A stretch of 32,000 nt of DNA from Candidatus Saccharimonadota bacterium (GTDB lineage: Bacteria; Patescibacteriota; Gracilibacteria; Absconditabacterales; Absconditicoccaceae). Of this stretch, positions 583 to 30,078 are shown piece by piece. Each line of letters starts with the position of its first letter. Positions within the stretch are counted from its first letter, which is position 1. The stretch lies in assembly GCA_000503875.1 (NCBI GenBank), contig CP006913.1:1080001-1112000 (forward strand), read 5' to 3'. A program made the translations under genes and the position numbers. The notes beneath the pieces were generated by a model. The model had not been told where the DNA came from and ran no database searches. It was given only the letters and a program-made list of their open reading frames with translations.

Positions 583-656
583 AGCGGATAACGGGACTCG
601 AACCCGTACGAACAGAGCTGAAGTCTGCTATGCTACACCAATTACATCATATCCGC
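583..656 (-). tRNA. tRNA-Gly(UCA), the UGA decoder
   Basis: Revcomp GCGGATATGATGTAATTGGTGTAGCATAGCAGACTTCAGCTCTGTTCGTACGGGTTCGAGTCCCGTTATCCGCT. Acceptor is GCGGATA/TATCCGC, anticodon stem GCAGA/TCTGT, loop CTTCAGC (anticodon TCA), T-arm ACGGG-TTCGAGT-CCCGT. G1:C72, C2:G71, G3:C70 and discriminator U73 are Gly identity elements. Confidence 0.9.
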
Positions 657-889: not shown

Positions 890-1831
890 ATGTTTTTTAA
901 CAGCAGAAAACTTCAAATTATTTTTACAAATATTCTAGGAATAGGGCTTGGATACTTCATTTATCAACAAAGTTCTTTCTCACAGGAACAAATGTTAGTA
1001 TATATATGTCTACAAACCATAGGAATAAATCTTCTTTTTTTTCAACAAAAAATATTTAAAATTATAAGTTTACCTTTTATGGTTAGCCTCTGAGTCTTTC
1101 TTCTTTTGGGGTTTTTGCCCTTATACAAAAACAGTCTCAATGAATCGACATTTTATCTTAGTCAACAAATTGACTATATCTTCCTAGGAAATCCCCAAAA
1201 TATTGAAATAAAAGAAACCTGAGGGTTTGGAGAACAAAAAATCATTCCAACACAAAACAATCAAAAACTTTTTTTTATAGAAAGTCCTTCAAGAACAATT
1301 GTTTTCGACGAAAAAATCGAATCTCCACAAGAAAAAAATAAATTAGTAATCAAATTTCCCGATAACACAATATATATAATGTATCCTTGATCCAAAGTTG
1401 TTTTAGAAAAGAAAAACGAAATCTACGCTCTTAGTAAAGAATATGGGAAAAGTGAATTTTATCAACCAACCAACAATACACAAGTACAAATAATAAATAG
1501 CAACACTCAAGAACAGAAAAATAAATCTGATTTTAATGTATGATATATGATCGATAATTATGAAAAACGTAAAACACAATATATTATTGATCAAGCAGGA
1601 GGAAGTATAATTATGCAACCAATTTATCAACGTTTTTCTAAAAAAATATTGGATATTGCTTACAAAGTATGGCCAGATATTTATTCAAAAAATCTCAGAA
1701 ATTATGAAGAATACAGTCAATTTTTTGGACGAAAAAACACAATAACAGAGTATCAAACAACAGCCAATTGGCGACAAATTATTCTCCAACAAATTGGAAA
1801 ATGACGTCAAGAAACACGTATTTTATACTAA
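890..1831 (+). CDS. Hypothetical membrane-anchored protein (313 aa)
   Basis: ORFs 890..1093 and 1547..1804 are in the same frame. I checked every codon between them: only TGA interrupts (1091, 1220, 1388, 1541, 1802) and the first TAA is at 1829. The N-terminus is hydrophobic. The start codon is uncertain. Confidence 0.5.
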
Positions 1832-1839
1832 GAATAACC

Positions 1840-2262
1840 ATGAAAATTATTTCTTTAATGAGAGAAGAAAAGATAATCAAGGAGGATCTTGTTTTTCATT
1901 ATATAAAAAGTACTGGTCCTTGAGGACAAAACGTCAACAAGAGAAATACCAAGGTACAATTGTTTTTTAATTTCCAACAAAGCAAAAATCTCTCTGACCA
2001 AGAAAAAGTAATGTTACAAGAACTTTATAATGATGATACTATTATAATAATTTCTCATGAAGAAAGATCTCAAAAACAGAACAAAGAATCTGCTATCCAA
2101 AAATTGTTTAATGAAATAAATACAAATTTAATTCCTAGAAAAGAAAGATTAGCAACAAAATTTCCTCGTTCTCAAAAAACAAAAAGATATGTAGACAAAA
2201 CTAGACAATGACAGAAAAAAAAGATAAGAAACAGTAAAATATGCCTTGATAACGAAGAGTAA
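1840..2262 (+). CDS. arfB: ArfB/YaeJ-type peptidyl-tRNA hydrolase (class I release-factor domain, 140 aa)
   Basis: ...HYIKSTGP-[TGA]-GQNVNKRNTKVQL... gives the GGQ motif only if TGA 1921-1923 is Gly. SHEERSQKQNKESA and the basic C-terminal tail (KFPRSQKTKRYVDKTRQGQKKKIRNSK) are typical of 140-aa ArfB. Confidence 0.85.
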
Positions 2263-2316
2263 GTCAGTAGAATATATAGCCGCTAAATATAAATTTTTAT
2301 CTATTGTTTTGTATAT

Positions 2317-4218
2317 ATGTTACAAAAATATAAAAATCATTTCGCAGAAATTATGAGACAAAAAACCAATTTATCGTTTGATGAGGTTTTTGCTCTTATG
2401 GAGACTCCACCAGAAAATATTTGAGGAGATTTTGCATTTCCTTGTTTTCAATTTTCAAAAACACTTAAAAAAGCACCAAACACCGTTGCCCAAGAATTTG
2501 TAAAAGATTTAAATTCCAAATTTTTTACCAAATTTGAAGCTGTTGGTCCTTATGTAAATGCATATATTAACCCAGAACTATTTATCACTGATGTTTTTTT
2601 AACTCAAGATCCAACACCAGCTGATCGAGAAAACCAAGACACCAAAGTTCTTATAGAATATATGAGCGCGAACCCAAACAAACCACTACATATCGGACAA
2701 GCTAGGAATATTTGTATAGGTGATAGTATTAGAAAAGTATTTCATTATTTATGATATCAAACTCATGCATCAAATTATGGAGATGATAGTTGAGTAAATG
2801 TAGGATATAATATTGTGGGTCATCTTCATTATGGATTACCTATAGAAACAGATAAGAAATTCGATCATTATTGTGGAGAAATTTATACTCAAATGAGAGA
2901 AAAAGACGAAGATCCTCAGTTCAAAAAACTGTTGTCAGAAACTTTAAGAAAGATTGAAGACGGAAAAGATCCTGATGTTTATAGAATTCATCAAGAATAT
3001 ACCAAAAGATGTGCTTTGGAACAAATCAAAACATGTCGAAGAATGAACGCGTCTTTTGATATGATTAACTGGGAAACAGATATTCTTCATATGAAATTTT
3101 TTGCCGAAGCAATAGAACTTCTCAAAGAAAAATGATATGTAAAATACGTCGATGAAGGTGAAGCTACAGGTTGTCGAATTATAGATCTTTCAACATTACC
3201 AGAATATGAAAAGGAAGAAAAAAAATATCAAATTCTTATTAAATCTGATTGAGTAGCAACATACACAGCGAAAGATATTGCTTTTGCATTGTGGAAATTA
3301 GGCTATCTTACAAAAGATTTTTTGTATAAATCATTTACTCATGAAGCAAATGGAAACATTATTTATACAACAACTGGCGAGGCCACAGGAGAAATCAAAG
3401 AAAAATTCTGAAACTATAATATTGCGGTGACTGTTATCGACAATAGACAACTTCATCCACAAGAAGTAGTTAAATCATCTCTCAAGCTACTTGGATATCT
3501 AAATAAAAATAAAGAGTATACACCATTGGGATACGGTGTTGTATATCTTACACCAAAAACATTACTTAGTTTTTGATACCAACTTACCGAAGAAGAAAAA
3601 TTAGAAAAAAGACTTCCTTTCGCGAGTAGAAAAGGATGGACAGTTACTATAGATGAAATGTTGCATATGATCCACGAAAAAGCATATCGAGAAACCAAAG
3701 AACGTAATCCAGAAAAAGATGCAGAACGATTGGATGATGTTTCAGAAAAGATAGCAATCGGATCGTTAAGATTTTTCTTGATAAAAAGCGATATTTCAAA
3801 AGATATTGTATTTGATGTAGATGAAGCATTAGATATGCAATGAGAAAGCTGAGCATATATTCTTTATACATGAGCCAGAATACAAAGTTTAATAGACAAT
3901 AATCCAGAACCCATCCAAAATCTCTCTCCAGAAGAAATAGCAAAATTACTCACAGAACCTGAAGAATTTGCTCTTATCAAAAAAATAGCAGAACGAAACG
4001 AAATAATTTTGACAACTCAACAACAATTGGCGCCACATATTATTTGTAGATATTTGTTGGATATCTCTAAATTGGTAAATAGTTATTATGCAAATATCAA
4101 GATTCTCAAAAGCGAAGATCCCCTCAAGTCTTCAAGAATTTCTCTCTTACAAAAAACACTAGAAAGAATGAAAACAGCCATGGAACTTATAGGTATGAGC
4201 TTCCTAGAAAGAATGTAA
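2317..4218 (+). CDS. argS: Arginine--tRNA ligase (633 aa)
   Basis: Track ORFs 2815.., 3658.. and 4009.. share the frame of ATG 2317. I counted 10 in-frame TGAs. HIGH-type motif ANPNKPLHIGQARN, SD-[TGA]-VATYTAKDIA, and C-terminal ...MSFLERM-TAA. Confidence 0.95.
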
Positions 4219-4539: not shown

Positions 4540-5121
4540 TTATATATCAGTCTTAATACTCATCTTAATTTCCGAGGTAATCAACACCGTCGCCAACCCA
4601 TGTAACAAAATCCAAACAGGAGTAAGAACAATAAATTGAATAATATAATAATTACTCGTAAAACCACGAGCCAAAGTCTCTAATGATGCTGGATTTAAAC
4701 TATTCATTCATAAAATAACAATTTCCAAAGTAAGGATAAAACTAATAACCGTCAATGGCACCAAAAACAATGAAAATGTTTTTTGTAAAATTTCATCATT
4801 AGGCATTGTTATACGAATTTTAGATTTTTGATACATCAAAAATAATAAGATAAGATAGAGAATCAAAACGATGCTTGTCTTTCCTCACGTTATAAATGTA
4901 GCTATATCATTATAAGAAAACGTCAGAATTTTTAATGTTGGTGTTGTTATAAGAAATTGTATAAGAATATCCAACGACTGATTTGCTGCCAAACACAAAG
5001 TAGCCAAAATATAGTTTCCCAAAAGAACTTTAATCATTTTTTCATTACCAATAACGAAGGCCAAAATTACCAAGATTGCTATCAATAAAAAGAAAATATA
5101 CGAAACTACTGTATCTGTCAT
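4540..5121 (-). CDS. Hypothetical polytopic membrane protein (193 aa)
   Basis: ORF 4885..5121 continues through TGA codons at 4885 and 4708. I checked codon by codon down to TAA at 4540-4542. The protein is hydrophobic throughout. Confidence 0.6.
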
Positions 5122-5212
5122 AGCAAGCTACAAAGGGTAAAACTATTGCAAGTCAGCAACCAATCACTACTATACTATTGTGATTTTTATTTTCAAACAG
5201 AAAATAGAAGAG

Positions 5213-5902
5213 ATGAAAAACAACAAAAAATGATTTACCATGATGGAAATTATGGTTATTGTCGTATTAATTGGACTTTGACTTATTACCGTAATTGAAG
5301 CGCTCAAAAATAGCAATACCTATCTTCAAAAAACAAGACAAAAAATTATTGCTATCAATCTTGCAAGAGAAGGTATGGAACAAATGATAAATATCAGAAA
5401 TACTAATCGACAAAAACGAGCGGGAGAAAAAGAAGAAACTCGACTTAAATTAAATCCATCAATTGACGAAAGTTCAGATTGATTACAAAACGATTTATGG
5501 TTTGGTTCAGGAAATTATATAATTCTGACTACTACTATGGACAATCAACAATATTTTTACGCAAGTGGTGTTAATCAACCGTTGATTATAGATAATGGAA
5601 TAGGAAATACTGGGAATTTGAAATATTCACTTTGTGAAACAGGATGAAAGCGATCAGGTTGTCCCGGACAAATTCCTCAAAGTACAGAAGGATATTTTTT
5701 TAGAAAAATTGAAGGAAAATGACTTTTTAAGAAAGAATCTTCAACCACTGGCGGAGAACCAATAAACTGCCCTACTGGTGAAGATACCAACTGTTCCACC
5801 TCCTCCGCCAAAGAATTCCGTTTCTGCTCAATTGTAGAATACATAGGAAATGGGGTGGGAAAAGTTGAGCTTTGTAGTGTACTTACCAATTTTGAGAAAT
5901 AA
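5213..5902 (+). CDS. Type IV pilin / pseudopilin-like protein with a prepilin N-terminal methylation motif (229 aa)
   Basis: MKNNKK-[TGA]-FTMMEIMVIVVLIGL-[TGA]-LITVIEAL gives the canonical G|FTxxE cleavage/methylation site with E at +5, provided TGA 5231-5233 is Gly. Cys pairs sit in the C-terminal half. TAA at 5900. Confidence 0.8.
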
Positions 5903-5913
5903 ATTTTACTTAT

Positions 5914-5950
5914 AAAAAAAGCCTCCGGATAAACCGAAGGCTTTTTAAAA
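5914..5950. terminator. Bidirectional intrinsic terminator between convergent genes
   Basis: AAAAAGCCTCCGG-ataaa-CCGAAGGCTTTTT, flanked by A-runs and T-runs. Confidence 0.6.
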
Positions 5951-5956
5951 AAAGGA

Positions 5957-7285
5957 TTATTGTTTGATAAACTTAGCAGTTACAGAACCGCGATTTTCAT
6001 CAAAAACTTTAATTACATACGTACCCGATCTATATGACGAAACATCAAGTCGATATTCAAAAGCATCAATCTTTTCTGTTGAAACAATTCTTCCAGAAAG
6101 ATCAAATACTTGTAAATGAGAGGCTTTTGCCTTTCCAAAGCTAAGATAAATATAATCTATCGCAGGATTTGGATAAAGGTTAATTTCCTGGTCTTTGATG
6201 TTATCTTCAATACCGGTTATTACAAGATAATTTACCCTAACAGTTTTTGAAGCTGTGCTTATTCCACAAAACGAATTCATGGTTAAAGTAACAGTAAAGT
6301 ATCCATAATACGGATTGTAATTATATGTCGGCGACATCTCATTGGATGTACCACCTCCAGTAACATAGTTGTTACCAAAATGCCAATTATAAGAATATGC
6401 AGTTTTATAATCTGGAATAAAGTTGATATTTGAACCAAATATTGGTCCATATGGACCTTGTCCAGTATCTTGCACATAATTAAAGTTAGCTACTATTGGG
6501 ACAACCCAAATAGAGTCTGTTACATAACATGTTTTATCAGAATAAACCATACCTGCTGTAAGTAAATATTGAGTAGGCGAACTAACTACAACAGAATAAT
6601 TTGAATTGTTTGATAAAACATTAAGAGGATCAGATACATAACTCCAAGCATAGTTATTTGCAAAACCTAAAGCTTGAAGAGAAACACTGTTTCCAAAACA
6701 ATTGAAAGCTGTGTCTTTTACAGAAACATTCGGTCCTGAATAAACGTTAGTTGTTGCGTCAGCAACTTCAGTTCCCGAGGTATAAGTAACTGTAAATGAA
6801 CCTGATGTTGTTGCAATAAACATTCTATTTGCAACATTGTCTCCAGAGAAAGAACCAGTTCCTGGATCAGGAATATAAAGATCCAATAATAAGGTATCTC
6901 CGATACATAAGGATGGTAAAGGGTTTTGAATCCACAAAGATGCTTGAACAATAACTTGATCGGTTGTTGAACAACCATAAATATTTGTTACTGTACACAT
7001 ATATGTTCCCAAAGAAGGAAGCTGTGGTTGCATCAATGGAGAGGTAAAACCATTTGGTCCTTCCCAATAATAAGTATACGTCTGCCCAGGTCCAGGGTCA
7101 TCAGTAGTGATGACCGGCTGGACAAAAGCTTGACCCGAAGATAAATACAAAACCGCAACAACATTTACATCCGGTGAGGATGAAAAACTTTTGGGCGAAG
7201 ACGTATATACCTTCGATAATGGTTGACTTAAACCCAGTAATGGGAAGAAAGCCAAACACATTAGAAGTAATTTGTTTGCTTTCAT
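5957..7285 (-). CDS. Secreted Ig-like repeat protein with a T9SS type A (Por) C-terminal sorting domain (442 aa)
   Basis: Uninterrupted standard-code ORF with no UGA. Probable start is MKANKLLLMCLAFFPLLGLSQP (signal peptide). The C-terminus INLYPNPAIDYIYLSF...LQVFDLSGRIV...LDVSSYRSGTYVIKVFDENRGSVTAKFIKQ fits the Por_Secre_tail consensus (lYPNP..., GxY..., k..k). Confidence 0.85.
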   Translation of the reverse strand: MKANKLLLMCLAFFPLLGLSQPLSKVYTSSPKSFSSSPDVNVVAVLYLSSGQAFVQPVITTDDPGPGQTYTYYWEGPNGFTSPLMQPQLPSLGTYMCTVTNIYGCSTTDQVIVQASLWIQNPLPSLCIGDTLLLDLYIPDPGTGSFSGDNVANRMFIATTSGSFTVTYTSGTEVADATTNVYSGPNVSVKDTAFNCFGNSVSLQALGFANNYAWSYVSDPLNVLSNNSNYSVVVSSPTQYLLTAGMVYSDKTCYVTDSIWVVPIVANFNYVQDTGQGPYGPIFGSNINFIPDYKTAYSYNWHFGNNYVTGGGTSNEMSPTYNYNPYYGYFTVTLTMNSFCGISTASKTVRVNYLVITGIEDNIKDQEINLYPNPAIDYIYLSFGKAKASHLQVFDLSGRIVSTEKIDAFEYRLDVSSYRSGTYVIKVFDENRGSVTAKFIKQ

Positions 7286-7298
7286 AATTTCCTTTTTA

Positions 7299-8582
7299 TT
7301 AGGGTTCATAACAACCATTGCTGTCAATAACAATATAACCAGTTGTAAAACCAGTTATTTGTGTTCCTGAAGCGGGAGGAGTAGCTAATCTTACATCAAA
7401 TTGAGCAGTTCCACCAGAAGATGTTACTGTAACATTTGGTTGATTGTTTGGCGCAACCAAAACATAAGGATGAGTAGATTGAACTAAACTAACCGTATAA
7501 TTTGGAGTACCTCCAACAACAGTTATTGTATAAGTAATAATATCACTACCACAAATAGTTAATGGCATATTGTCTACAATACTAGTAATTGTTGGATATC
7601 CATGAACGGTAAACACAAGAGTATTAGAAGTAGACCAACAAGCACCTTGCTGTGATCTTACAACAATATTATGTGTTCCAACTGTTAATCCAGCGGTTGT
7701 AAACGTAGTTGCTGTTTCACCAGGAACCACAACACCATTATCAGACCATTCATATAAAGTAGCGCCTGTTGTTGTTGCTGTAAAGATAACCGAAGTTCCA
7801 AAACAAGCAGCATCACCAGTAGCATTACTAGTAAGAACGGTTGGGTTAGTACCAATAGCCGAAACAGTGATTCCATTAATTGTAGTATCACAACCAGCAG
7901 TATTAGTAACAACAACATGATAAGTTCCTGTTGATGATAAACCACCTTGAGTAGCGTTTGTTCCTAGTGGATTATTAAGTAAATCATACCACTGAACAGA
8001 AGCAAAAACTCCATTAACGGTAGCGGTTGCATCAGCAGATCCACAATTTTCAGGTGTTGTTGTTATAGTTACGTTTGGTAAAGCATGAACAGTAAACACA
8101 AGAGTATTAGAAGTAGACCAACAAGCACCTTGCTGTGATCTTACAACAATATTATGTGTTCCAACTGTTAATCCAGCGGTTGTAAACGTACTTCCTGTTT
8201 CACTAGGAACCACAACACCATCATCAGACCATTCATATAAAGTAGCGCCTGTTGTTGTTGCTGTAAAGATAACCGAAGTTCCAAAACAAGCAGCATCACC
8301 AGTAGCATTACTAGTAAGAACGGTTGGGTTAGTACCAATAGCCGAAACGGTGATTCCATTAATTGTAGTATCACAACCAGCAGTATTGGTAACAACAACA
8401 TGATAAGTTCCTGTTGATGATAAACTACCTTGAGTAGCGTTTGTTCCTAGTGGGTTATTAAGTAAATCATACCACTGAACAGAAGCAAAAACTCCATTAA
8501 CGGTAGCGGTTGCATCAGCAGATCCACAATTTTCAGGTGTTGTTGTTATAGTTTGGTGAACCCACAATAGTTTTGGGATCAC
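7299..8582 (-). CDS. Secreted Cys-containing Ig-like repeat protein; the body is out of frame with its own signal-peptide ORF
   Basis: 427-aa ORF with no UGA, containing two ~161-aa near-identical repeats (TITTTPENCGSADATATVNG...LVFTVH). A signal peptide MKRFLLLLGMVFTCTIVLGQ starts at 8658 in another frame. The C-terminal ~95 aa are paralogous to the 8687..9592 product. Confidence 0.7.
   Translation of the reverse strand: MIPKLLWVHQTITTTPENCGSADATATVNGVFASVQWYDLLNNPLGTNATQGSLSSTGTYHVVVTNTAGCDTTINGITVSAIGTNPTVLTSNATGDAACFGTSVIFTATTTGATLYEWSDDGVVVPSETGSTFTTAGLTVGTHNIVVRSQQGACWSTSNTLVFTVHALPNVTITTTPENCGSADATATVNGVFASVQWYDLLNNPLGTNATQGGLSSTGTYHVVVTNTAGCDTTINGITVSAIGTNPTVLTSNATGDAACFGTSVIFTATTTGATLYEWSDNGVVVPGETATTFTTAGLTVGTHNIVVRSQQGACWSTSNTLVFTVHGYPTITSIVDNMPLTICGSDIITYTITVVGGTPNYTVSLVQSTHPYVLVAPNNQPNVTVTSSGGTAQFDVRLATPPASGTQITGFTTGYIVIDSNGCYEP
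7587..8552. repeat. Tandem duplication, 2 x 483 nt, near-identical
   Basis: The run ...ggtaaacacaagagtattagaagtagaccaacaagcaccttgctgtgatcttacaacaatattatgtgttccaactgttaatccagcggttgtaaacgta occurs at ~7609 and again at ~8092. The protein repeats differ at only a few residues. Confidence 0.85.
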
Positions 8583-8686
8583 TAGTTTTTGGTGTCGGTT
8601 GTCCTAAAACTATAGTACAAGTAAACACCATTCCGAGCAATAAAAGAAATCTTTTCATTGTTTTATTTTTTTAGTTTATTAATTTT

Positions 8687-9592
8687 TTAGTAACCATAAC
8701 AACCATTGTCATCAACAACAATATAACTAGTTGTAAAACCAGTTACTGTCTGTCCAGGTGCTGGAGGATTTGCCAATCTTACATCAAATTGAGCAGTTCC
8801 ACCAGAGGTTGTTACATTTACACTTGATTGATTGTTTGGACTAACCAAAACATATGGACGAGACGATCCAATTAAACTAACAGTATAATCTGGAGTACCT
8901 CCAGTTACTGTTATAGTATAAGTAATAATCTCTGTCCCACAAAAACTTAATGGTTTGTTGTCCGAAATAGTAAATGTTGGTTGTTGATATACCTCCAAAA
9001 CAATAACTTCGGCGGTATAATCAATTGCACCCAAACAACTTGGGTTTTTAATCATAGCTCTAAATCTTTTAGTAACAGTCGAGCTATTTACCTGTAAAGT
9101 TAGAGAGTGGTTTATCGCTGAATAGTTTGGGTTTGCTGTTAAATTAACCCAGGAACCGGTCCATTCTTGCCACTGATAATCAAAATTTTCATTATAATCA
9201 GCTGCGAGAAAATTTCTTGTTGTATTTGGACAATCTCGAACATTTTGTTGAGTTAAAAGTCCAGAAGCAACACCAGGATTTGGAAATAATTTAACCCATT
9301 TTGTAGCAACAACTGTTGCCCCATTCATAAAATAAACAAATACATCAATCTCTGTAGAAAAAGTTAAAGTAGCTTGATTTCCTACAGCAGTAATACCTAT
9401 CGGATTTGATGTCCAAGAGGTAGAGGTAGCACCACCCAAAGATGCGGTTATAGTAACAACAGTTCCGGGTCTTACATTAATTACGTTGTTTGTACCATCT
9501 TTTGAATATTGGTCTGATGATACAGTAAGTGTTTGACCAAACATTGTTGTTGTTATAAAAACAAACAACAAAAAAACAATTTTTGTTTTCAT
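8687..9592 (-). CDS. Secreted protein (301 aa) sharing a C-terminal domain with the 7299..8582 product
   Basis: Signal peptide MKTKIVFLLFVFITTTMFGQ. No UGA. C-terminus ...ITYTITVTGGTPDYTVSLIGSSRPYVLVSPNNQ...TAQFDVRLANPPAPGQTVTGFTTSYIVVDDNGCYGY parallels the neighbouring gene. Confidence 0.8.
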   Translation of the reverse strand: MKTKIVFLLFVFITTTMFGQTLTVSSDQYSKDGTNNVINVRPGTVVTITASLGGATSTSWTSNPIGITAVGNQATLTFSTEIDVFVYFMNGATVVATKWVKLFPNPGVASGLLTQQNVRDCPNTTRNFLAADYNENFDYQWQEWTGSWVNLTANPNYSAINHSLTLQVNSSTVTKRFRAMIKNPSCLGAIDYTAEVIVLEVYQQPTFTISDNKPLSFCGTEIITYTITVTGGTPDYTVSLIGSSRPYVLVSPNNQSSVNVTTSGGTAQFDVRLANPPAPGQTVTGFTTSYIVVDDNGCYGY

Positions 9593-9782
9593 ATTTTTAA
9601 GTTTATTGGTTTTGCTTGTTAATTAACTCCTTCGTTATGAAAATAGGCTTTTTTACAACAAATTATAACTTCCTCATTTTCATACTGCTGTTATAACAAT
9701 TTAAATACAAAAGTCAAGACAATATACAAAAAAGAACATAAAAATAAATGACATAAATAGCCAGATTTTTTTTATATATATA

Positions 9783-9816
9783 AAAAAAATCCCCCTTACT
9801 AAGAAGAGGGATTTTT
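9783..9816 (-). terminator. Intrinsic terminator of the 9819..10958 gene
   Basis: The minus strand reads AAATCCCTCTT-cttagt-AAGGGGGATTT followed by a T8 run. Confidence 0.6.
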
Positions 9817-9818
9817 AA

Positions 9819-10958
9819 TTATTTTTGAAATTTTGCGAATTCTTTAAAATATGTTTCTAAATATGTTCTAGCCAATGGTAAATATTCTTTTTGTTTCATA
9901 TCAAGTACTAAATATAATATTCCCAAGAAATCATTATATAATTTTGTAAGTGCTCCTATTTCTTTATAAACAAGAATTTTACTATCACTTGTCAGATTTT
10001 CAAAATTTTCTATCATATAACTTGGATCTGTCACTTTCAAAAGTTTTTTATTGATTGCTGTATATAAACTTCTATTTAAACTTAATATTGTTTTTTTTAT
10101 TAAGGCTTGTCTATATTTTGGTACAAAAATTCTAATTTTTATTCATTGAGGAGTGTATTCATAAACAACGCTTTTTTCTTCTTTAATAATTTCTAATATT
10201 GCATCAACACCCGTTCCCAAAGAAACATTACATGTTTTTCCAAGACTTCATCCCGCACAATAATATCCTGTCTTGAGGGTATAAATACCGTTTGTACAAG
10301 TAAGATATATATCAGAACACATAGAACTTGATCCTCAACCTCATCATCCTCCTACTGTTCATCAAGTAATATTTACAGTAAATGAAGGTATATTTAAAGG
10401 TGTACTAACATTTCCCGCTAAATCTTGTCAAATAATAGAACAATTATTATAAACTCAATTAATTAAATTAGAAAAGGTAATTGTGTTGTTTCAAGTATTA
10501 GCGTTTATAGAACAAGTTCAACAAGATCATAAACAAGATATTGTTACTGGTCCTTCACTAGAACTAAATCAAAATGTAGCTGTTCTATTTAAAACAGAAA
10601 CACCTAAACTAGATAAAATAGGATTTGTTATATCACTAGACACTATAGTACAACTTTCTCATTTGTTTTTAAATACAGTTTCACAATAACATCAATCAGG
10701 ATCTCAACAAAGTTCTCAATTTAAAATATTAGTCGTATTTAAATCCATTGCTGGATCGCCTGGAGTACATGTACCTCAATTACTTAAATTAGGTACTGTT
10801 GTTAAACCACAAAGACATCCTCAACCAGTTTCACATAATTCTCAAGTATTACAAATTAATCCACCTGCTAAACTACAAGCTCCATATACAACTACACCAA
10901 AAAAATATCCAGCTCCTGCTAAAATAACTAATAATAACAATTTTGACACGTTTTTCAT
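9819..10958 (-). CDS. Secreted Cys- and Gly-rich hypothetical protein (379 aa), very UGA-rich
   Basis: ATG at 10958 (MKNVSKLLLLVILAGAGYFFG...). I checked every codon down to ORF 9819..10040: there is no in-frame TAA/TAG and more than 25 in-frame TGAs. One run reads TGGTVGGGGGGGSSS (10323-10367). Confidence 0.75.
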
Positions 10959-11078
10959 AATATATTTAGTAAATAGATAAACAATGTTTTTCTTTTTTTA
11001 TCTTTTTACTATAAAATGTCAAGTCTTTTTTCTGTCTTTTTTATTTAAAGAAAAAAAGCTATTTAAAGCTTTTAAAAA

Positions 11079-11155
11079 TGGAGCAAGCAACGGGATTTGA
11101 ACCCGCAACCTCTTCCTTGGCAAGGAAGCGCTCTAGCCAATTGAGCTATGCCTGC
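11079..11155 (-). tRNA. tRNA-Gly(GCC), CCA encoded
   Basis: Revcomp GCAGGCATAGCTCAATTGGCTAGAGCGCTTCCTTGCCAAGGAAGAGGTTGCGGGTTCAAATCCCGTTGCTTGCTCCA. Anticodon stem is CTTCC/GGAAG, loop TTGCCAA, discriminator U. Confidence 0.9.
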
Positions 11156-11197
11156 GTTTTTATAGTAAGTATCTGTTAGAGAAAACATCTGAATATA

Positions 11198-11259
11198 TAA
11201 TCAAGCGCTCCTTGTCCTCTTTAGAGGATAGCCAATTGAGCTATGCCTGCGTTTTTATA
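11198..11259 (-). repeat. Partial duplicate of the tRNA-Gly(GCC) leader plus tRNA nt 1-22, fused to the same 38-nt module as at 129-166
   Basis: 11229-11259 is an exact 31-nt copy of 11134-11164. 11198-11235 is identical to 129-166. Confidence 0.85.
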
Positions 11260-11665
11260 CTTCTATAATTTCTAATTTACTTTCTTCTTTTTCTTTTTTT
11301 GCTTTTGCACTAACAAAAAAATTAGTCCAAGCTAAAACAACTAGAAAAGATCATAATATTTTAACTAAATCACTAATATAAACATAAGATTCAATATTAT
11401 TTATCAAAACACTATCTCATATTAAAACCAAAGCTATTCATAGAACAAACAAACTAACTTTATTAATTTTCATATATATAGGATGTATTGCAAACAAAAC
11501 AAATAAATAAATTCCAACTATAGCTAAAATACTATAATACAATGTATTAAATTCCAAAAATCATTCACTAACAATAATTTTTGAAGAAAAAAATAAATAA
11601 GCTATATATCATATAAATCATCATGAAATAATTCATATAGAAATTCTTTTTAATAAATCTTTCAT
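11255..11665 (-). CDS. Hypothetical membrane protein (136 aa)
   Basis: ATG at 11665, TAA at 11255-11257. All codons checked; 9 in-frame TGAs. MKDLLKRISIGIISGGFIGYIAYLFF... has about 4 hydrophobic helices and a KAKKEKEESK tail. Confidence 0.55.
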
Positions 11666-12032
11666 TTTTTACAATAAAAAAATAAAGCTCTCTATACATA
11701 GGAATTTATTAGTTATTTTCAAGTCTTTATATTTAATTTTTTACTAAATATTTTTTAAACAAAAGCTTTTATATTAATATAATATTATATAAGTAATAAA
11801 AATTAAAAATAATAATAAGACAAAATTATTAACAAAATGTTTATTTAGATACAAACAAATACTAACCTACACAAAACAATATATTTCAAAAAAAATAAAA
11901 TGTAGAAATGTAGAAAAAATAAACAATATTTTAAAAATAATATATAATTATGGTAAAAATAAAAACACAGTCTTAAACCGTGTTTTATATATAAAATATA
12001 GATCTAAACCCACAAAACAAATTGTTGAATTT

Positions 12033-18968: not shown

Positions 18969-19679
18969 ATGATCTATTCGAATCAAAACTACACACTTCT
19001 TCGAAAACCCAATGGAATTGCGTCTACTTTTGGTGGACAGCAATCAATTTTGGATTACTTTGAGGATTCACAACAATTACAAACGATATTAAACAATTCT
19101 GATTTTGATCAATATCAGTCCTATTGCTATCTCGATGGGTATACAAAACAAAATGCAGATACCTTTCTTCATAACCAAACAACACAGTTTACCAAAGAAC
19201 AAGAATATGGTTTATTAAATAGATTAGATAATGACACTGGCGGATTCCTTTATTTTGCCAAAAACATCGAAAGTTACCAGTTCTACAAGGAACAGCAACA
19301 CAAATGAACAATACAAAAAATGTATCTTGCAGAAGTTCACGGCAATCCATTTTTTACATCAAAAGAGAAAATTCTAACTATAGAAACCCCTATTATGCAT
19401 CATCGTTCTGATGACCAAAAAATGATAGTTGTTACTGATGAAAAAGATAAAATTCAATGAAGATGAGAACCTCATCATGTTTCCACCACGATAGAACTTA
19501 TTTCTTATAATCAAGAAAGGAACACATCACTACTTCATGTATTAATACACAAAGGAATCCGCCACCAGATTAGAATACATTGTAAAAGTATATGAGCCCC
19601 GATTGTCGGAGATAAACTATATGGTCCAAAGACACCAATTTCAGACACCCTCCATCTCCGATCAATCGGAATGAAATAA
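18969..19679 (+). CDS. RluA-family pseudouridine synthase (236 aa)
   Basis: GLLNRLDNDTGGFLYFAK (HRLD-type catalytic Asp motif), KGIRHQIRIHCKSI-G-APIVGDKLYG. 4 in-frame TGAs. TAA at 19677. Confidence 0.8.
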
Positions 19680-19687
19680 TTATTACT

Positions 19688-19716
19688 AATGAGAGATCTA
19701 TTCTCTCATTTTTTTA
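19688..19716 (+). terminator. Intrinsic terminator
   Basis: AATGAGAGA-tcta-TTCTCTCATT followed by T7. Confidence 0.7.
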
Positions 19717-19718
19717 AT

Positions 19719-20064
19719 ATATAAATTCACTAGTTCTATGAAACAATGAATTATATGTTTTTTTATATAGTGAAAAACAATAAATAAGGAAATACCTATT
19801 TCTGTGAAAGAGTGAAATGTGGGGATAAAGCGACTGGTTTTTTTAATGGCCGGAAGTTTTTTTATAAAATTCACTAATTCTATGAAACAATGAAATAGTT
19901 TTTTCCTTGTGTTTTTGGTATATTGCCTATGTTAATAAAAAATAATTTACTATATAAGTGAAATAGTGAAATTATTTTAATAGAAATATAAAAGATAAAA
20001 AGCCCTTGAAATTTTATATTTAAAAGATTATATTCACTATATAAGTGAAATAGTGAAGTTATTT
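19719..20064. promoter_or_regulatory. Non-coding repeat array carrying the TTCACTAT/ATAGTGAA motif, upstream of the HTH gene
   Basis: Pair A: 19719-19750 and 19863-19894 (TATAAA(A)TTCACTA[G/A]TTCTATGAAACAATGAA). Pair B: 19947-19977 and 20033-20064 (TT[A/C]ACTATATAAGTGAAATAGTGAA[A/G]TTATTT, an internal inverted repeat TTCACTAT-n9-ATAGTGAA). An extra ATAGTGAA lies at 19767-19774 and GTGAAA at 19804-19818. All six frames are closed. Confidence 0.6.
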
Positions 20065-20079
20065 ATTTTTTTTAGTACC

Positions 20080-20388
20080 ATGATTCATCCAGGACGACAT
20101 CTATCAAACAAACTCAAAGAATATTGACGAACGCAAAAACAATTTGCGGATCTTTTGGGAAAAAAAGTAAGTGAAGTAAATGAACTTATAAATGGCAAAA
20201 GAAATATAACTATCCAACGAGATATTCTTCTTGCTCTTGTTTTTGATCAAGCAGAAGGAAATCGACTCGCTATGCAAAACGAATATGATTATAGCATCGT
20301 AAAAATGAAGCTCGACAAGAAAAAACTTGATGATATCAAAAAAAGGAAAAATCAACTTAACAAACACCATGTATTTTCTACCTTTTAA
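20080..20388 (+). CDS. HigA/VapI-like XRE-family HTH protein (102 aa)
   Basis: MIHPGRHLSNKLKEY-G-RTQKQFADLLGKKVSEVNELINGKRNITIQRDILLALVF matches the HigA antidote pattern (iHPGe.L.e....g.sq..lA..lgv....i.eii.GKr.it). No toxin ORF lies next to it. Confidence 0.75.
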
Positions 20389-20402
20389 TTGTTACAAACA
20401 AA

Positions 20403-21539
20403 ATGAAACAAAAACCTTTAAAAATTGTTATGGCATGAGGGTGAACAGGCGGACATGTTTTTCCTATTAAAAGTCTTTTGGAATATCTTGCTCAACACAA
20501 AACATTTTCTTCAAACATCAATCATATTTATCGATTTGGCAATAAAAACGCCTTAGAATATACGGTTTTTCAATGATTAAAAAATGCACATAATTGAAAG
20601 AAAAAATGATATGAACTAGATTTTATTTCTATCTATTCATGAAAATATCGTAGAGAAACCCTTCTTAAATCTAGAATAAAAAACGTTAGAGATCTTTTTC
20701 TTTTTGCGATAGGAGTTGTTCAATCTCTTTTCTGGTTAATTTACTACAAAATTGATGTAATTTTTTGTAAGGGTGGTTATATTGCGCTTCCTGTTGTAGC
20801 GGCAGCACGATTATTACGTAAAAAAATTATTGTTCACGAATCAGACACCCATTCGTGATTAGTCAATAAAATAGCATCAAAATTTGCTTGGACAACCTTT
20901 ACATGATTCGATAACGTCCTTCCAAAAGCAAAAACAGTTGGACAAATTATTTCAGAAGAAGTTATAATAGACCAAAAGGAGGCCAAGATGTTTCTCAAAC
21001 AATATCCAGAACTAGATGTTCAAAAGCCATGGATTTTAGTTGTTTGAGGTTCTCAAGGATCTCAAAGACTTTATCAAGCAATTATCAAAGCATTAGAATC
21101 AGATAAAAGCCTTCAAAATGATATACAATTTCTAGTTGTTTTAGGTCTTCTAAATAAAGATCTTAGACCTCAATTTGAAAGATTTCCAAATGTGGTTTGT
21201 TTTGATTTTGTGACCCAAAAAGAGATGGGAATGCTTTGTTATCACTCTGATATCGCTATCACTCGCGCAGGCACAACGTCATTAGCAGAACAAAAGCTCT
21301 ACGATATGAAGCTCTTTATTGTTCCTATTGCTTGGACTCACGACCAATATGACAACGCAAATCGATATCAAAAACACTATAATGATATTCTTATAGACCA
21401 AAAAGATGATACCTTTCTCAACAAGCTTATTATGGAAATAAAAAGACATAAAAATTTCAAAAAAATTCTGACTTCTCAAGATAGGCTAGCTACAATTTCA
21501 AAGGCCAAAGAAGAAATTTGGGAACATATTATTGATTAA
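20403..21539 (+). CDS. murG: UDP-N-acetylglucosamine--N-acetylmuramyl-(pentapeptide) pyrophosphoryl-undecaprenol GlcNAc transferase MurG (378 aa)
   Basis: KIVMA-[TGA]-G-[TGA]-TGGHVFP gives GGTGGH. VHESDTHS-G-LVNK. ILVV-[TGA]-GSQGSQ gives GGSQG. ITRAGTTSLAEQ. HDQYDNA. Confidence 0.9.
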
Positions 21540-21584: not shown

Positions 21585-24500
21585 TTAAAACCCATTCATA
21601 GTCAAAGTAAGAGTACCACTATAACTACCTGGAGCCTGATTAGCAGGTACGTTTACTAATAATCAAACATTATCAGCACTTACCCTACAAATCTTGTTAC
21701 TATCAGGAATCTTTTCAAATATTTCATAAGGCGCACTATAGAATTGTGTAGCTGTTCCATTATCTCCTGTACAAGCTGAGTCACCTTCAACAACAACAGG
21801 ATTATGAGAGATAAGAAGATTACTACCAGAAATAACATTTGATTTTTCATTAATTAGATCAGTTGTCTGAATAGTTAATGTCCACCCTCAATTAATACCT
21901 CTATAATCTTGACAATACCAAGTAGAAGGGAAGGTTCCAGTAAAGGTATAAGGGACACCAATTTTCACCTCTTGAGCATCCATAGTGAGTGATGTTCAGT
22001 AGATACATTCGGTAACTCATCAGGTTATTGTTAGGGTAATATTTCAATTAGTTCAATTTCCAGAAGATCAATCGGTATATTCAATAGTATCAGAAGTAGA
22101 AATATCAGCAATAAAATCGCTATCTAAATCGAACTCAGCATAAACAGTTTTAGTTCAAGTACCGGCAGAAAGAGTTCGAGATTTGGTATCAGAAATAGAT
22201 TCCCAAGCTGATCGGTTAGAATTATCATTAGAAAATCTCATATACGCTATAGCACCAGAGATATTTAAAGTTACATTTTGAGAATTAGTAGAAGCATCAT
22301 CATTATTGATAACAAAAGAGCCAGTTCCTTCTCCGATTGCGAAATATGTAGCGTGATCTGTAGTAAACTCAACATAAGGAATTCAAGCAATATCTATGAC
22401 TGTAGAGGTTCAGTGGAAAGACCAGTTAGAAGATAAATTTTGAGAATAGAATATATCTACAACATCATCAATATTTTTACCTAAAGCAGGCATTCTCACA
22501 GTAACAGACTTACTAAAATCAATTCTCTTGGTAGCATCACCAAATTTAGTGAGAGCAACAACATTATCAACCAATTTAGTACTACCCGTACTCAAAAGAA
22601 CAGGAGCTTGTAAGATACCAGTAAATCATTGTCCATTAGTAGTAAGTAATGTTCAGCTATCATACTGAACTTCTACATTATTTAGATAATAATCTTGAGT
22701 ATAATTAGAAGTTGGCGATTGCATAATAATATCAACTAATATTTCATTAGTAATTCCAGGGGTAAAACTAATAGCATATGTTCAAGTATAATAATTACCA
22801 GATAAAGAATAAAGAGCAAGAGTTATTTTGCCGTCCATTACTTCCTTAGTTAATTCGGTAATAAAATCGATTTGATTAGTAGAGTTTATAACACTACAAT
22901 AGTTATTATTTGTTTCAGTTGATCAATTTGGATACGCTATTATTCCTGGATTATCTGTGCAAATAGAAGATAAAGATAAGTCCCATAAGTTTAATAAATT
23001 ATCAAAAACATTACTTGTTATAGATGATATAAAATTTTTATTTAAAGAAAGCCCATTTAAATTATCAAGTTCATAAAAATTTCAAACATCAATAGAAAGT
23101 AATTGATTATTATCTAAATAAAGATACATTAAAGAAGGAAGTCATGAAAACCCACTAACTTCAATAGAATTTATTTGATTGTAACTTAAATATAATTCGT
23201 TGAGAGAAGAGAGCCCATTAAAGTCTCCAGATTCAATAGAATTTATTTGATTTGTACTTAAATCAAGGAAAATTAAAGAAGAGAGCCCATTAAAGTCTCC
23301 AGATTCAATAGAATTTATTTGATTTGAATTTAAATCAAGATAGGTTAAAGAAGAAAGCAAATTAAAGCTATTAGATCCAATGGAACTTATTTCATTTCAA
23401 TATAAATAAAGATCTGTTAAATTAGTAAGTCCAACAAAATCTCAAATATCAATAGAATTTATTTGATTATTACCTAAATCAAGATAGGTTAAAGAAGAAA
23501 GCAAATTAAAGCTATTAGATTCAATAAAACTTATTTCATTTCAATATAAATAAAGATCTGTTAAAGAAGAAAGATCAGCAAAATCTCAAAGATCAATAGA
23601 ATCTATTTGATTGTTATTTAGATCAAGATAAGTTAAAAAGGAAAGTCAAATAAAACTTCCAGATTCGATAGAACTTATGGCATTTCAATCTAAGCTAAGT
23701 TGGGTTAAATTATTAAGACCAGCAAAATCTCAAACATCAATAGAACTTATTTGATTATATACCACATTTTCTGGACCAATATCTCTAGGTAATTTAAAGT
23801 TTCATAAATAAAGGTCAGTTAAATTATCAAGTCAATAAAAACTTCCAGATTCAATAGAATTTATTTGATTGTATCATAAATTAAGATAAGTCAAAGAGGA
23901 CAGTTCTGAAAACCCATAAGCTTCGATAGAGCTTATTTTATTAATATTTAAGTTAAGCTGAGTTAAATTATCAAGTCCAATAAAATCTCAAACATCAATA
24001 GAAGTTATTTGATTATAATTTAAATAAAGGTTTTTTAATAAAAATAATCAACTAAAACTTCACCTTTCAATTGATGAAATTTGATTTTGTGTTAGGCTGA
24101 GATAATCTAAATTAGTAAGTCCAATAAAATCTCAAACATCAATTCATGTAATTAGATTATTATCCAATAAAAGACCTGTTAAATTAGTGGCTCATAAAAA
24201 CCCTCAACTTTCAATAGAAGTAATCTGATTTTGAGATATTTCAAGTCTAATTAAAGAAGAAAGACCATTAAATGTTCCGGCTTTAATTGTAGTTAGTTTA
24301 TTTTGATCTAAATCAATAATATTTAAATTAGAAAGCCCTAAAAAACTTCAACTTTCTATTGATGTAAGATTTCCACCATCCATATAAAGTCATATCAAAT
24401 TATCAAGTCCAACAAAATCACCAACATCAATTCAAGTTAATGGATTATTTCTTATAGCAAGATATTGTAAATTACTATGATTTATAAAAGAATCAGAAGC

Positions 24501-24656
24501 TATACTAGTAATATTTCTTCAAAATAAATCACAAGAAGTTGCTCATGTCTCACAATTGAAAGTACTGATAACATTACCACTATTTAATTCTTCAGCCCGT
24601 GTAAAAGAAGCAAATATCCCCAAAATAAACAGAGCTGCGATTAGTATTTTTTTCAT
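21585..24656 (-). CDS. Large surface protein (1023 aa): signal peptide, about 20 leucine-rich repeats, middle domains, C-terminal WxL-like module
   Basis: The length is exactly 1024 codons. ORFs 22410.. and 23142.. are in frame. MKKILIAALFILGIFASF. 24-aa LRR units read L..L..L.L..NQI.SIE.GDF.GL, with many of the Gly residues encoded by TGA. The C-terminus ...WYCQDYRGIN-G-GWTLTIQ...LLVNVPANQAPGSYSGTLTLTMNGF resembles the Gram-positive WxL cell-wall-binding domain. Confidence 0.8.
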
Positions 24657-28600: not shown

Positions 28601-28757
28601 TTTTTCATCAACAATCAATATCAGCGGTCAACGATTTGATGTCTACGATATTTCTGGTCAAATTGAATTGACAACTGCCACACAATGACTATCTTGAAAG
28701 CAATCCCAAGATCAAAAATCTTGGTTACAAAAGTTTTTAATATGGTTAGGTATATAA
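25698..28757 (+). CDS. Secreted multi-repeat lamin-tail-domain (LTD)-like protein (about 1019 aa if single-frame); frame integrity is doubtful at 26450-27240
   Basis: Signal peptide MTKRLLIIFFITLAYFLIIIPVQS. I checked all frame-0 codons from 26400 to 27684: no TAA/TAG before 28755. ORFs 26094.., 27684.., 28074.. and 28413.. are in frame. LTD-like motifs: IISEIYYDGTEEWIEITN, SITEIYQ..DFIEIQ, II-G-VLPNPVGKDDKEELHLL, ILGALPNPQGKDDTEFISLL. Confidence 0.55.
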
Positions 28758-28765
28758 TTAGACTT

Positions 28766-29704
28766 ATGAAACAAGCATATGTAAGAGGGTATTATGGATA
28801 CAAAAACTTTGGAGATGAATTGCTTTTTTTTGGAGTAATTGATTGGATTTTTTCTCATTATCCAGAAATTCAAGAGCTTGTTATAGAGGTAAACAACAAA
28901 ACCTGGATGGAATATCGAGTCAAAAAAAACTACCAGGAATACACTTCCAAAGAACAATATCATAAGATTTCTTTTGTGGAAATTAAACAACATCGTTGGA
29001 AATATCTTACCCATATTATTAGTTTGTTGGGCTTTGGAAAATATAGATCGTATTTCAAATTCTTTGGTTGATGAGAGGTTCTTAGCGATGAAAGAGATTT
29101 TCCTCATGATGGACGAAACATTCCTCTTCTTTTTGGAACAACAGTGAGAAAATGAAAATTTATGCTTCTTGGAGGAATAGGAACACCCAGAAAAACAAGA
29201 ACAAAATTGCTTTATGATATATTACTTCCCAAAGCAGAATGAATTATAACAAGAGAAGAAACTTCGTATAAAACAGCGTTAAAACGAAATAAACACACAG
29301 CTTCCTATCAAGATTTTAGTCAAAATATTATAGAAAATACAGCTTGTAAAAAACAAGATACTTCTCCATCATACGTGCTTATAAACTGCAATTTAAAATC
29401 TCGAAATCCTGACACAAAAGAATCTATTGTTGAATTTTGCAAGACTCATGCTCAACACAAAAAAATCTTTTTTCCTTGTGATATGAACGATGATATTTAT
29501 TGCTTTGCGGATCTTCAACAAGACATTCCTGATTTAGAAATGTATGATCGAACCAAGCATTCATTACAAGATTCTCTTTGTCTTTTTAAAGGTTCAACGG
29601 CAGCAATTTGAGCAAGACTTCATTTTCTTTTACCGCTCAAATTGTACAAAAAAGATTTTACAGCAATTAAATACGCAGAAAAAATATATAAGATGATTGA
29701 TTAG
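28766..29704 (+). CDS. Polysaccharide pyruvyl transferase family protein (CsaB-like, 312 aa)
   Basis: MKQAYVRGYYGYKNFGDELLFFGVI... (GyyG..N.GDe motif). FKFFG-[TGA]-[TGA]-EVLSDE gives GGGevlsD. ORF 29375.. is in frame. The TAG at 29702 overlaps the stop of the convergent gene. Confidence 0.7.
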
Positions 29705-30078
29705 AATCCATTCATAGTCAACGTAAGCGTACCACTATAATTACCTGGAGCCTGATTAGCAGGGACATTTACTAATAATCAAACATTATCAGCGCTTACT
29801 TTACAAATTTTATTACTTCCTGAAGCTTTTGCAAAGAGTACATAAGGTGCATTATAAAATTGTGTAGCTGTTCCATTATCTCCTGTACAAGATGAATCAC
29901 CTTCAACGACAACAGGATCATGAGAGATTAAGAGATTGCTACCAGAGATAACATTTGATTTTTCATTAGTTAAATCAGTTGTTTGGATAGTTAATGTCCA
30001 TTCTGAAGTAATACCTCTATAATCTTGACAATACCAAGCAGAAGGAAAGGATTCCAGTAAAGGTATATGGAATACCAA
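29701..30078 (-). pseudogene. Detached C-terminal WxL-like module of the delta-60-repeat protein, +1 out of frame with the body
   Basis: ...FPSAWYCQDYRGITSEWTLTIQ...LLVNVPANQAPGNYSGTLTLTMNGF-TAA is paralogous to 21585-22000. Compared with the paralogue there is one extra base at 30051 (ggattcc versus ggttcc). Confidence 0.65.

Follow-up and report, generated by a model that had tools for sequence, protein, structure and literature searches.

In Streptomyces, TTA is read by the bldA tRNA-Leu(UAA), and this one codon splits the genes into two classes, the codon-free class being translatable regardless of the special tRNA. Phages that recode a stop codon reportedly avoid the recoded codon in their early genes. 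UGA recoding in SR1 and Gracilibacteria is usually treated as an all-or-none property of the whole genome and is seen as hindering gene exchange. TGA-free phages compatible with code 11, assigned to hosts by CRISPR spacers, are predicted to infect Gracilibacteria and Absconditabacteria, whose prophages and chromosomes are reported to be rich in UGA (Liu et al. 2023, mBio, PMC10746230). Here we describe three adjacent chromosomal genes, I3, I2 and I1, that contain no UGA at all. They lie in a 32,000-nucleotide stretch of contig CP006913.1 (positions 1,080,001 to 1,112,000; hereafter the window), in a genome that uses code 25 (UGA = Gly). Our main conclusion, to which we assign a probability of roughly 0.85, is that this block is an old resident that has been kept by vertical descent, with purifying selection acting against UGA in these genes. 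The absence of UGA is due neither to youth of the block, nor to base composition, nor to artefact.

The window comes from the closed genome of candidate division SR1 bacterium RAAC1_SR1_1, in the description of which UGA was shown to encode glycine and I1-I3 are not mentioned (Kantor et al. 2013, PMC3812714). Once TGA is taken as a sense codon, long open reading frames (ORFs) run throughout the window, and TGA occurs inside every substantial native gene. All three block genes are on the minus strand. I3 (8687-9592) encodes a 301-residue secreted protein (P148_SR1C00001G1011) with a predicted signal peptide and ends in TAA; I2 (7299-8658), annotated as 'PKD protein', encodes a secreted Ig_7 (CHU_C-associated) repeat protein of 454 residues when intact; and I1 (5957-7285), which also ends in TAA, encodes a 442-residue secreted protein (100% identical to P148_SR1C00001G1009) with a signal peptide, about four Ig-like/PKD-like domains (Ig, immunoglobulin) and a C-terminal sorting domain. 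Alternative bounds are 5957-7333 for I1 (GenBank start at 7318) and 7299-8582 or 7299-8603 for the body of I2. Tables 11 and 25 gave identical ORFs for I1-I3, so the block is readable in both codes.

In-frame TGA is absent from the 33, 43 and 22 Gly codons (code 25) of I1, I2 and I3, that is, 0 of 98. Given the window background of 213 TGA in 575 Gly codons (0.37), the probability of zero UGA is 2e-7, 2e-9 and 4e-5 for the three genes, and about 2e-20 jointly (0.63^98). The genes on both sides use TGA: argS has 10 in 634 codons, the pilin gene has 5, the Cys-rich gene at 9819-10958 has 20 in 380 codons, and a leucine-rich-repeat protein gene has 39. These counts bear out the original prediction, made from the sequence letters and an ORF list, which had described three consecutive minus-strand genes without UGA, kept readable under table 25 by their TAA stops, next to an argS with 10 UGA and between pilin and Cys-rich flanks that are table-25 genes; its figure of more than 25 UGA for the Cys-rich gene was too high.

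The same prediction had judged the block more GC-rich than its flanks. Total GC is indeed higher (0.35-0.38 vs 0.19-0.33 in the flanks), but third-position GC, at 0.14-0.22, is like that of the flanks (about 0.2). The GC excess is therefore explained by amino-acid composition, with many Thr, Val, Gly, Ala and Pro residues and few Lys, Ile and Glu. Moreover, the native gene at 25698-28757 has a GC content of 0.38 yet contains 34 TGA, and GC content therefore does not explain the absence of UGA in the block. Strand or mutational asymmetry was ruled out as a cause by the UGA-rich Cys-rich neighbour, which is on the same strand.

We compared the block across about 200 kb of sequence from about 13 genomes, taking the first ATG as the start of each flanking gene. 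The gene order of the window (pilT, small genes including one that encodes 137 residues, tRNA-Gly(GCC), the Cys-rich 380-residue gene, I3, I2, I1, pilin, a 194-residue gene and argS) is shared by eight other code-25 genomes (L003, L004, L006/L007, L011, L012, L013, L014 and L050), although some of the syntenic contigs end inside the block and hold only part of it. The nine operon-bearing genomes form one clade, and all syntenic contigs require code 25 in the flanks. The block is thus present at the syntenic site in 8 of the 8 other genomes recovered, and not patchily, as in a recent island. I1 homologues in the eight genomes are 38-66% identical to I1 of the window, against 77-89% for argS; among all operon-bearing genomes identity is 73-90% for argS, 58-86% for pilin, 30-68% for I1 and 21-67% for I3. 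Table-11 gene calls in L003 recover the three block genes whole and break the flanking genes into fragments. All orthologues retain the ORFs, the signal peptides and the sorting domain, and the sole lesion is a 5-bp indel in I2 of the present assembly. Two of the syntenic contigs, L011 (CAZUIS010000040.1) and L012 (CAYRHE010000008.1), are labelled 'uncultured Candidatus Peribacteria bacterium' (phylum Peregrinibacteriota), yet they are syntenic with RAAC1 SR1 and their flanks are full of sense TGA; the label is probably wrong.

Over eight genomes the block contains 0 TGA in 596 Gly codons (7,335 codons in all), whereas TGA makes up 48% of 1,532 Gly codons in the flanks, and UGA is the commonest glycine codon in the neighbouring genes. 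Taken gene by gene across the loci, the probability of UGA absence in block genes ranges from 4e-5 down to 4e-16; in L004, argS has TGA at 26 of 32 Gly codons, against 0 of 35 in the I1 orthologue. We then looked at glycine positions that are invariant. At 13 such columns in seven I1 orthologues, GGA, GGT, GGG and GGC replace one another, with 2.62 distinct codons per column, and TGA is found at 0 of 91 positions. In argS of these genomes, 29 columns with invariant Gly show the same degree of variation, 2.76 distinct codons per column, and TGA is found at 88 of 203 positions. Between pairs of genomes, conserved residues with more than one codon differ in their codon at 38-67% of positions in the block vs 26-54% in the flanks. 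Synonymous change in the block has thus been as great as in its neighbours, and therefore GGA-to-TGA changes would have arisen many times and been removed.

Usage of synonymous codons other than UGA is close to that of the flanks. Neither in synonymous composition nor in divergence does the block resemble a recent island; what deviates is UGA and, mildly, the CGN and NNG codons. In its two other reading frames the block has 16.9 and 45.4 TGA per 1000, against 19.9 and 33.4 in the flanks. Because out-of-frame TGA is normal, the exclusion is specific to the reading frame, and causes that act regardless of frame, for example RNase or restriction sites, were rejected on the same ground.

A second UGA-free family came to light in L008, an Absconditicoccaceae metagenome-assembled genome (MAG) that was reached through a match resembling I1 in the sorting domain alone. 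L008 encodes two proteins with the Por_Secre_tail sorting domain, of 867 and 473 residues, with 0 TGA in 80 and 42 Gly codons, and the genes around them, including ribosomal-protein genes, use TGA for 33-100% of Gly. The 473-residue protein, which combines FG-GAP repeats with Por_Secre_tail, represents the second family; its members in code-25 MAGs share 35-79% identity, and beyond these MAGs the next homologue has 27%. Zero UGA was found in the members from four genomes (42 Gly codons in L008, 42 in L047, 36 in L048 and 43 in L049). The locus of this family is conserved as well, lying near the genes for S12, S7, L19, L25 and L28, a CAP-domain gene and dnaJ. In a survey of 188 ORFs of at least 120 codons at 12 code-25 loci, the strong UGA-depleted outliers were the block and sorting-domain genes, two Band_7 genes in L049 and one small ORF. 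Within these 188 ORFs a single codon, by being present or absent, sets the genes in question apart, and the UGA-free genes together have UGA at 0 of about 840 codons in 25 ORFs. Full-text literature searches turned up no earlier account of chromosomal genes free of UGA in Absconditabacteria or Gracilibacteria.

The two Band_7/SPFH genes of L049 are adjacent (19657-20505 and 20508-21386), contain 0 TGA in 9 and 20 Gly codons, have a third-position GC of 0.30-0.33, and occupy a slot beside rpsL (S12). In L008 this slot holds the 867-residue sorting-domain protein (1599-4199), and in L047 it holds uvrC. The slot resembles a hotspot for foreign standard-code DNA.

Relatives outside code 25 are few and distant. 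A search of 5.8 billion protein clusters and 185,579 species genomes placed the full-length relatives of I1 and I3 exclusively in code-25 contigs, with those of I3 confined to SR1-type contigs; the remaining relatives were short, remote matches in MAGs of Saprospiraceae, Cytophagaceae, Chitinophagales and Flavobacteriales. A scan of viral contigs gave similarity to the block at the level of the sorting domain only, and a scan of metagenome contigs with the sorting-domain pattern gave remote matches only, among the matches listed. Three contigs that resemble I1 in the sorting domain alone (P0020, P0026 and P0029) were discarded as block relatives; they are ordinary standard-code contigs of Bacteroidota type.

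I3, I2 and I1 make up an operon for three Sec-exported proteins with Ig-like repeats, the last of which carries a type A C-terminal sorting domain of the type IX secretion system (T9SS). This domain (5960-6178, minus strand; residues 370-442) scored 48 bits with PF18962 (cut-off 27) and 49.4 bits with TIGR04183 (cut-off 23), as the original prediction had read from the terminal motif. PF18962 is precomputed for 13 of 13 listed members of the I1 family, the LYPNPA...KFIKQ pattern is kept in the 12 that were aligned, and the mean pairwise identity of the domain, 0.44, is within the range of the other I1 domains. I2 matched Ig_7 (CHU_C-associated) with 36.6 bits, and its last 100 or so residues are homologous to those at the C-terminal end of I3 (65% identity, with 37% of the query covered). 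Pfam and NCBIfam searches with I3 gave no match. The AlphaFold model of I1 (mean predicted local distance difference test, pLDDT, 80.8) is all-beta, with about four Ig-like domains followed by the sorting domain; among PDB entries it is closest to fragments of GhpA (E down to 2e-16), the grappling-hook protein of Aureispira, a predatory member of the Saprospiraceae; eukaryotic Ig-type adhesion molecules come next. The model of I3 (pLDDT 76.6) is likewise all-beta, with three Ig-like beta-sandwich domains, and matches tandem Ig/FN3 adhesion molecules. I1-I3 also evolve much faster than the neighbouring genes and show a recombination mosaic, a pattern typical of exposed contact proteins. We infer that the three proteins are likely to be surface adhesins for contact with a host or prey. 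In groundwater Gracilibacteria, VCBS-repeat adhesion proteins have been detected in a metaproteome (PMC11452946).

Signal peptides of Bacteroidota type had been claimed for all three proteins. I1 (MKANKLLLMCLAFFPLLGLSQ, by inspection only) and I3 have plain signal peptides, while that of I2 is out of frame in the present assembly: a 5-bp deletion (AATGT) at 8553/8554 splits I2 into a signal-peptide stub and a 427-residue body. Two other assemblies of the same population carry AATGT, which gives a 454-residue I2 with the signal peptide MKRFLLLLGMVFTCTIVLGQ from the ATG at 8658. Next to the deletion, I2 contains a tandem duplication (7601-8553) of 2 x 483 bp, 98% identical; the repeat has two copies in the window and in L001 and a single copy in L002 (GCA_003543185.1). 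The deletion and the difference in repeat copies represent either variation between strains or a mistake of assembly or curation at the repeat boundary. An invariant Gln follows the hydrophobic core in the I1 orthologue alignment, and Gln at +1 of the signal peptide is invariant in the UGA-free families. We rejected this residue as a marker of Bacteroidota, because native secreted proteins with many UGA codons share it, among them the CAP-domain proteins of L008, L047 and L049 and the product of the gene at 25698-28757.

SR1 presumably has neither an outer membrane nor a T9SS. Full-text searches for literature linking T9SS or its sorting domains to Gracilibacteria or Absconditabacteria found none. 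The RAAC1 genome has no genes for lipid A or lipopolysaccharide (LPS), and neither lpxC nor kdsA (Kantor et al. 2013, PMC3812714). A T9SS together with an LPS outer membrane is thus probably not to be found in SR1, and we class I1 as the carrier of a sorting domain, not as a working T9SS substrate.

Upstream of I3, at 9690-9717 on the minus strand, there is a promoter-like element, TTGACT-N16-TATAAC, an exact match that is unique within the window. TTGACT-N16-TATAA[C/A] is kept in 5 of 5 orthologous intergenic regions, as a match to consensus only, and a TAnnTTTG element of Bacteroidota type is absent from 4 of the 5 loci. Native SR1 genes have elements of the TTGACA-N17-TATAAT type. On these elements, transcription of the block by the SR1 polymerase would be the simplest reading. 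The intergenic region, which includes the terminator of the native Cys-rich gene, has a mean identity of 78% in an alignment of five loci. The 5' leader of I3 (about 97 nt; 9593-9689, minus strand) contains an inverted repeat formed by GTATGAAAATG (9675-9685) and CCTATTTTCATAAC (about 9633-9648), then an A-rich stretch and the ATG. The repeat could be an operator or an mRNA-stabilising hairpin; RNAalifold gave a weak -0.4 kcal/mol for the leader, and GTATGAAAATG was found nowhere else in the window, including the surroundings of tRNA(UCA). In an Rfam search of 5000-12000 only a tRNA reached the gathering score, other matches being far below it.

The 25 nt before the start codon differ between the two kinds of gene. 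They are 55% A and 26% T in block and sorting-domain genes (n = 19), and 37% A and 48% T in native genes (n = 71; Mann-Whitney P 2e-8, the samples being non-independent). The A-rich leader is a second persisting 'foreign' trait of the UGA-free genes. Shine-Dalgarno motifs were found in neither native nor block genes, which makes a comparison on this point uninformative. The native leaders contain a recurrent TTTTATTT-like element, also in front of ribosomal-protein genes inside operons. T-richness, this element and the lack of a Shine-Dalgarno motif may together indicate that the lineage initiates translation by an unusual signal.

Some further features of the window concern the surroundings of the block. 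The UGA decoder, tRNA(UCA), labelled 'SeC' by ARAGORN, is encoded at 583-656 (minus strand), about 5.3 kb downstream of the block, and tRNA-Gly(GCC) at 11079-11155 (minus strand), about 1.5 kb upstream, with a native UGA-rich gene in between. The block is thus flanked by two glycine tRNA genes, an arrangement that is kept in L003, L006, L012 and L013 and may be coincidental, a by-product of synteny. The block has no integrase or transposase ORF beside it, though no search was aimed at direct repeats; the context is chromosomal and syntenic, and not that of a phage or mobile genome. The immediate neighbour, the membrane-anchored Cys-/Gly-rich protein of 380 residues at 9819-10958 (minus strand), is fast-evolving (50-78% identity) and has the same recombination pattern as I3, yet its gene contains 20-33 UGA and can serve as an internal control. 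Farther away, the genes at 29701-31999 and 21585-24656 (both minus strand) encode very large UGA-rich surface proteins that share a near-identical C-terminal module of about 230 residues (TLTITGGVTEC.YGTSLTMDAQEVKIG.PYTFTG...WYCQDYRGI...TLTMNGF); in one of the two, a frameshift near 30100 splits the module into two ORFs.

How could a codon be kept out of these genes for so long? The block, whose parts are of Bacteroidota type, entered an ancestor of the Absconditabacteria (SR1) clade long ago and has kept a single chromosomal position ever since, while lineages recombined to some extent. The exclusion of UGA is absolute while ribosomal-protein genes use UGA freely, and a single UGA would therefore be near-lethal for the function of these mRNAs; their translation would therefore have to take place under conditions in which UGA does not stand for glycine. 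Old residence and purifying selection combined with such a hard constraint is, in our judgement, somewhat better than an even bet. As the setting we favour an SR1 cell in which decoding by tRNA-Gly(UCA) is unavailable or shut down, for example in a host-free or attacking stage. UGA-free adhesins, probably for contact with host or prey, would escape such a global block of translation, and the foreign genes, as the only ones free of UGA, would have been recruited for that reason. Translation inside SR1 while UGA decoding is off ranks first among the settings; taken alone it is a tentative choice, with the odds against it.

Several points weigh against these proposals. The 596 Gly codons of the block are not independent, coming from one clade in which argS is 73-90% identical, a dependence that the invariant-column comparison addresses. 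The survey covered about 200 kb from about 13 genomes, and the UGA-free genes described here are those of this sample. The -10 element upstream of I3 lacks the canonical final T. Finally, codon gating alone would explain neither why the UGA-free genes are all of Bacteroidota type, nor why the sorting domain is conserved, and it would leave the contrast between their A-rich leaders and the T-rich native ones unexplained.

Among the alternatives, the one that survives best is translational selection, in which the proteins would be extremely abundant, S-layer-like products and a slow or error-prone UGA would be purged from the most highly expressed genes. A strong -35 element and a long conserved leader, both seen upstream of I3, resemble those of S-layer genes. 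Ribosomal-protein genes show a mild UGA deficit, with TGA for 46% of Gly vs 63% in other native genes, and for Ala, Thr and Val the use of T-ending codons in the block has moved the same way as in these genes. However, the deficit in ribosomal-protein genes is small, whereas here it is total in all 25 UGA-free ORFs. Codon usage for Arg, Glu and Gln also departs from the ribosomal-protein preference: AGA makes up 39% of Arg codons in the block vs 90% in ribosomal-protein genes and CGN 45% vs 5%, and CGN, GAG and CAG are all used more in the block. In addition, the other secreted surface proteins of the window have 20-39 UGA each. Translational selection is therefore an unlikely account, though one to be taken seriously.

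Less probable again is a continual inflow, in which an unsampled population with the standard code supplies new alleles time and again, by import or conversion, and these never reside long enough to gain UGA. SR1 has genes for competence and a type IV pilus (Kantor et al. 2013, PMC3812714), and the phylogeny of the block is a mosaic, with I1 of L012 grouping with L003 and I3 of L012 grouping with the window; the raised CGN, GAG and CAG and the A-rich leaders would be the residue of a foreign codon flavour. Against such an inflow, both UGA-free families are monophyletic within code-25 contigs, the nearest outsiders being at most 27-36% identical over parts of the proteins, and the visible recombination partners are other SR1 lineages. 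The Cys-rich neighbour recombines in the same way yet is full of UGA, and synonymous divergence in the block matches that of the flanks.

A third alternative, very improbable in our view, places the decoding in another cell: DNA or mRNA would be delivered to a standard-code host or prey with a T9SS, which would make the proteins, export them by Sec and display them by T9SS. As a system between bacteria it would parallel Agrobacterium T-DNA or Tir/intimin, and it would cover at once the absence of UGA, the TAA stops, the A-rich leaders lacking Shine-Dalgarno motifs and the conservation of the sorting domain in a cell without LPS. However, the conserved element upstream of I3 is sigma-70-like and not of Bacteroidota type, no system for nucleic-acid export is evident in the window, and there is no precedent among bacterial epibionts; the Gln at +1, being shared with UGA-rich native secreted proteins, is not diagnostic. 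The hosts of cultured SR1 relatives are Proteobacteria, which have no T9SS (PMC8080830, PMC13059738).

The original prediction had favoured recent horizontal gene transfer from a standard-code Bacteroidota donor, unameliorated and possibly decaying. This is scarcely credible for the block as a whole, although a Bacteroidota-type origin holds at the level of domains, as indicated by the Por_Secre_tail and Ig_7 domains, the remote Bacteroidota relatives and the structural matches to GhpA. The missing UGA, the TAA stops, the somewhat higher GC and the I2 frameshift of this assembly fit a recent arrival as well. However, the block is intact and at the same site in eight other genomes, where I1 is only 38-66% identical; third-position GC equals that of the flanks, as does synonymous divergence (0.38-0.67 vs 0.26-0.54); and the known Bacteroidota homologues are just short, remote matches even in the very large search described above. 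Conservation of all ORFs, signal peptides and the sorting domain in the orthologues speaks equally against a decaying footprint. SR1 homologues with in-frame UGA had been named as what would contradict the transfer; close homologues do exist, and all are without UGA, so the phenomenon is stranger than simple horizontal transfer. Last, a double-junction assembly chimera of Bacteroidota DNA in an SR1 scaffold, which the abrupt change of UGA usage at both borders could have suggested, can be dismissed, since 19.6 kb that span the two junctions recur with at least 99.9% identity in two independent assemblies of the same population (a 191-kb ENA MEGAHIT contig and GCA_003543185.1), which differ from the window in I2 alone, the same gene order recurs in contigs of at least eight other samples, and the intergenic region upstream of I3 is conserved together with the native Cys-rich terminator.

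If old residence under selection against UGA is correct, a small set of chromosomal genes has been held code-neutral for as long as the lineages can be compared, while the neighbouring genes switched freely between GGN and UGA. Selection on a single reassigned codon, gene by gene, implies some setting in which UGA is not glycine, be it conditional decoding or translation elsewhere. The block would thus offer a handle on the altered code as a device for regulation or host interaction in uncultured parasites, and on the role of T9SS sorting domains in cells without an outer membrane. It would also be a dated natural experiment on amelioration, or its failure, after a genetic-code boundary has been crossed. 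On the practical side, gene calling with table 11 recovers exactly these genes whole and may mislead binning and taxonomic assignment.

Compared with known systems, the block proteins are closest in architecture to T9SS type A cargo such as the Ig-like adhesin GhpA of Aureispira. They share with such cargo the Sec signal peptide, the chains of Ig-like/PKD-like domains and a C-terminal Por_Secre_tail above the curated cut-offs, and have in common the motif W.GPNGF...G.Y.C..TN..GC. Unlike it, they are encoded in a code-25 Patescibacteria genome without LPS genes, are short (300-450 residues) and have diversified only in SR1-type genomes. The nearest published phenomenon is that of the TGA-free phages (PMC10746230), which likewise have no in-frame TGA, use other stop codons and are readable in both codes. 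Those are whole phage genomes, whereas the block is chromosomal, syntenic and vertically inherited, lies among UGA-rich genes and has no phage genes nearby. The likeness to codon-gated regulons is by analogy: one codon would split the genes into two classes, as we propose for UGA in SR1. Here, unlike in those regulons, regulation of tRNA-Gly(UCA) is only proposed, the codon is the majority Gly codon, and the codon-free class is tiny and foreign. With ordinary ameliorating genomic islands, finally, the block shares foreign-type genes with an atypical codon signature set between native genes, but it has no mobility genes, is present in all relatives examined and has a native third-position composition, and in it one codon has stayed unameliorated despite saturating synonymous change.

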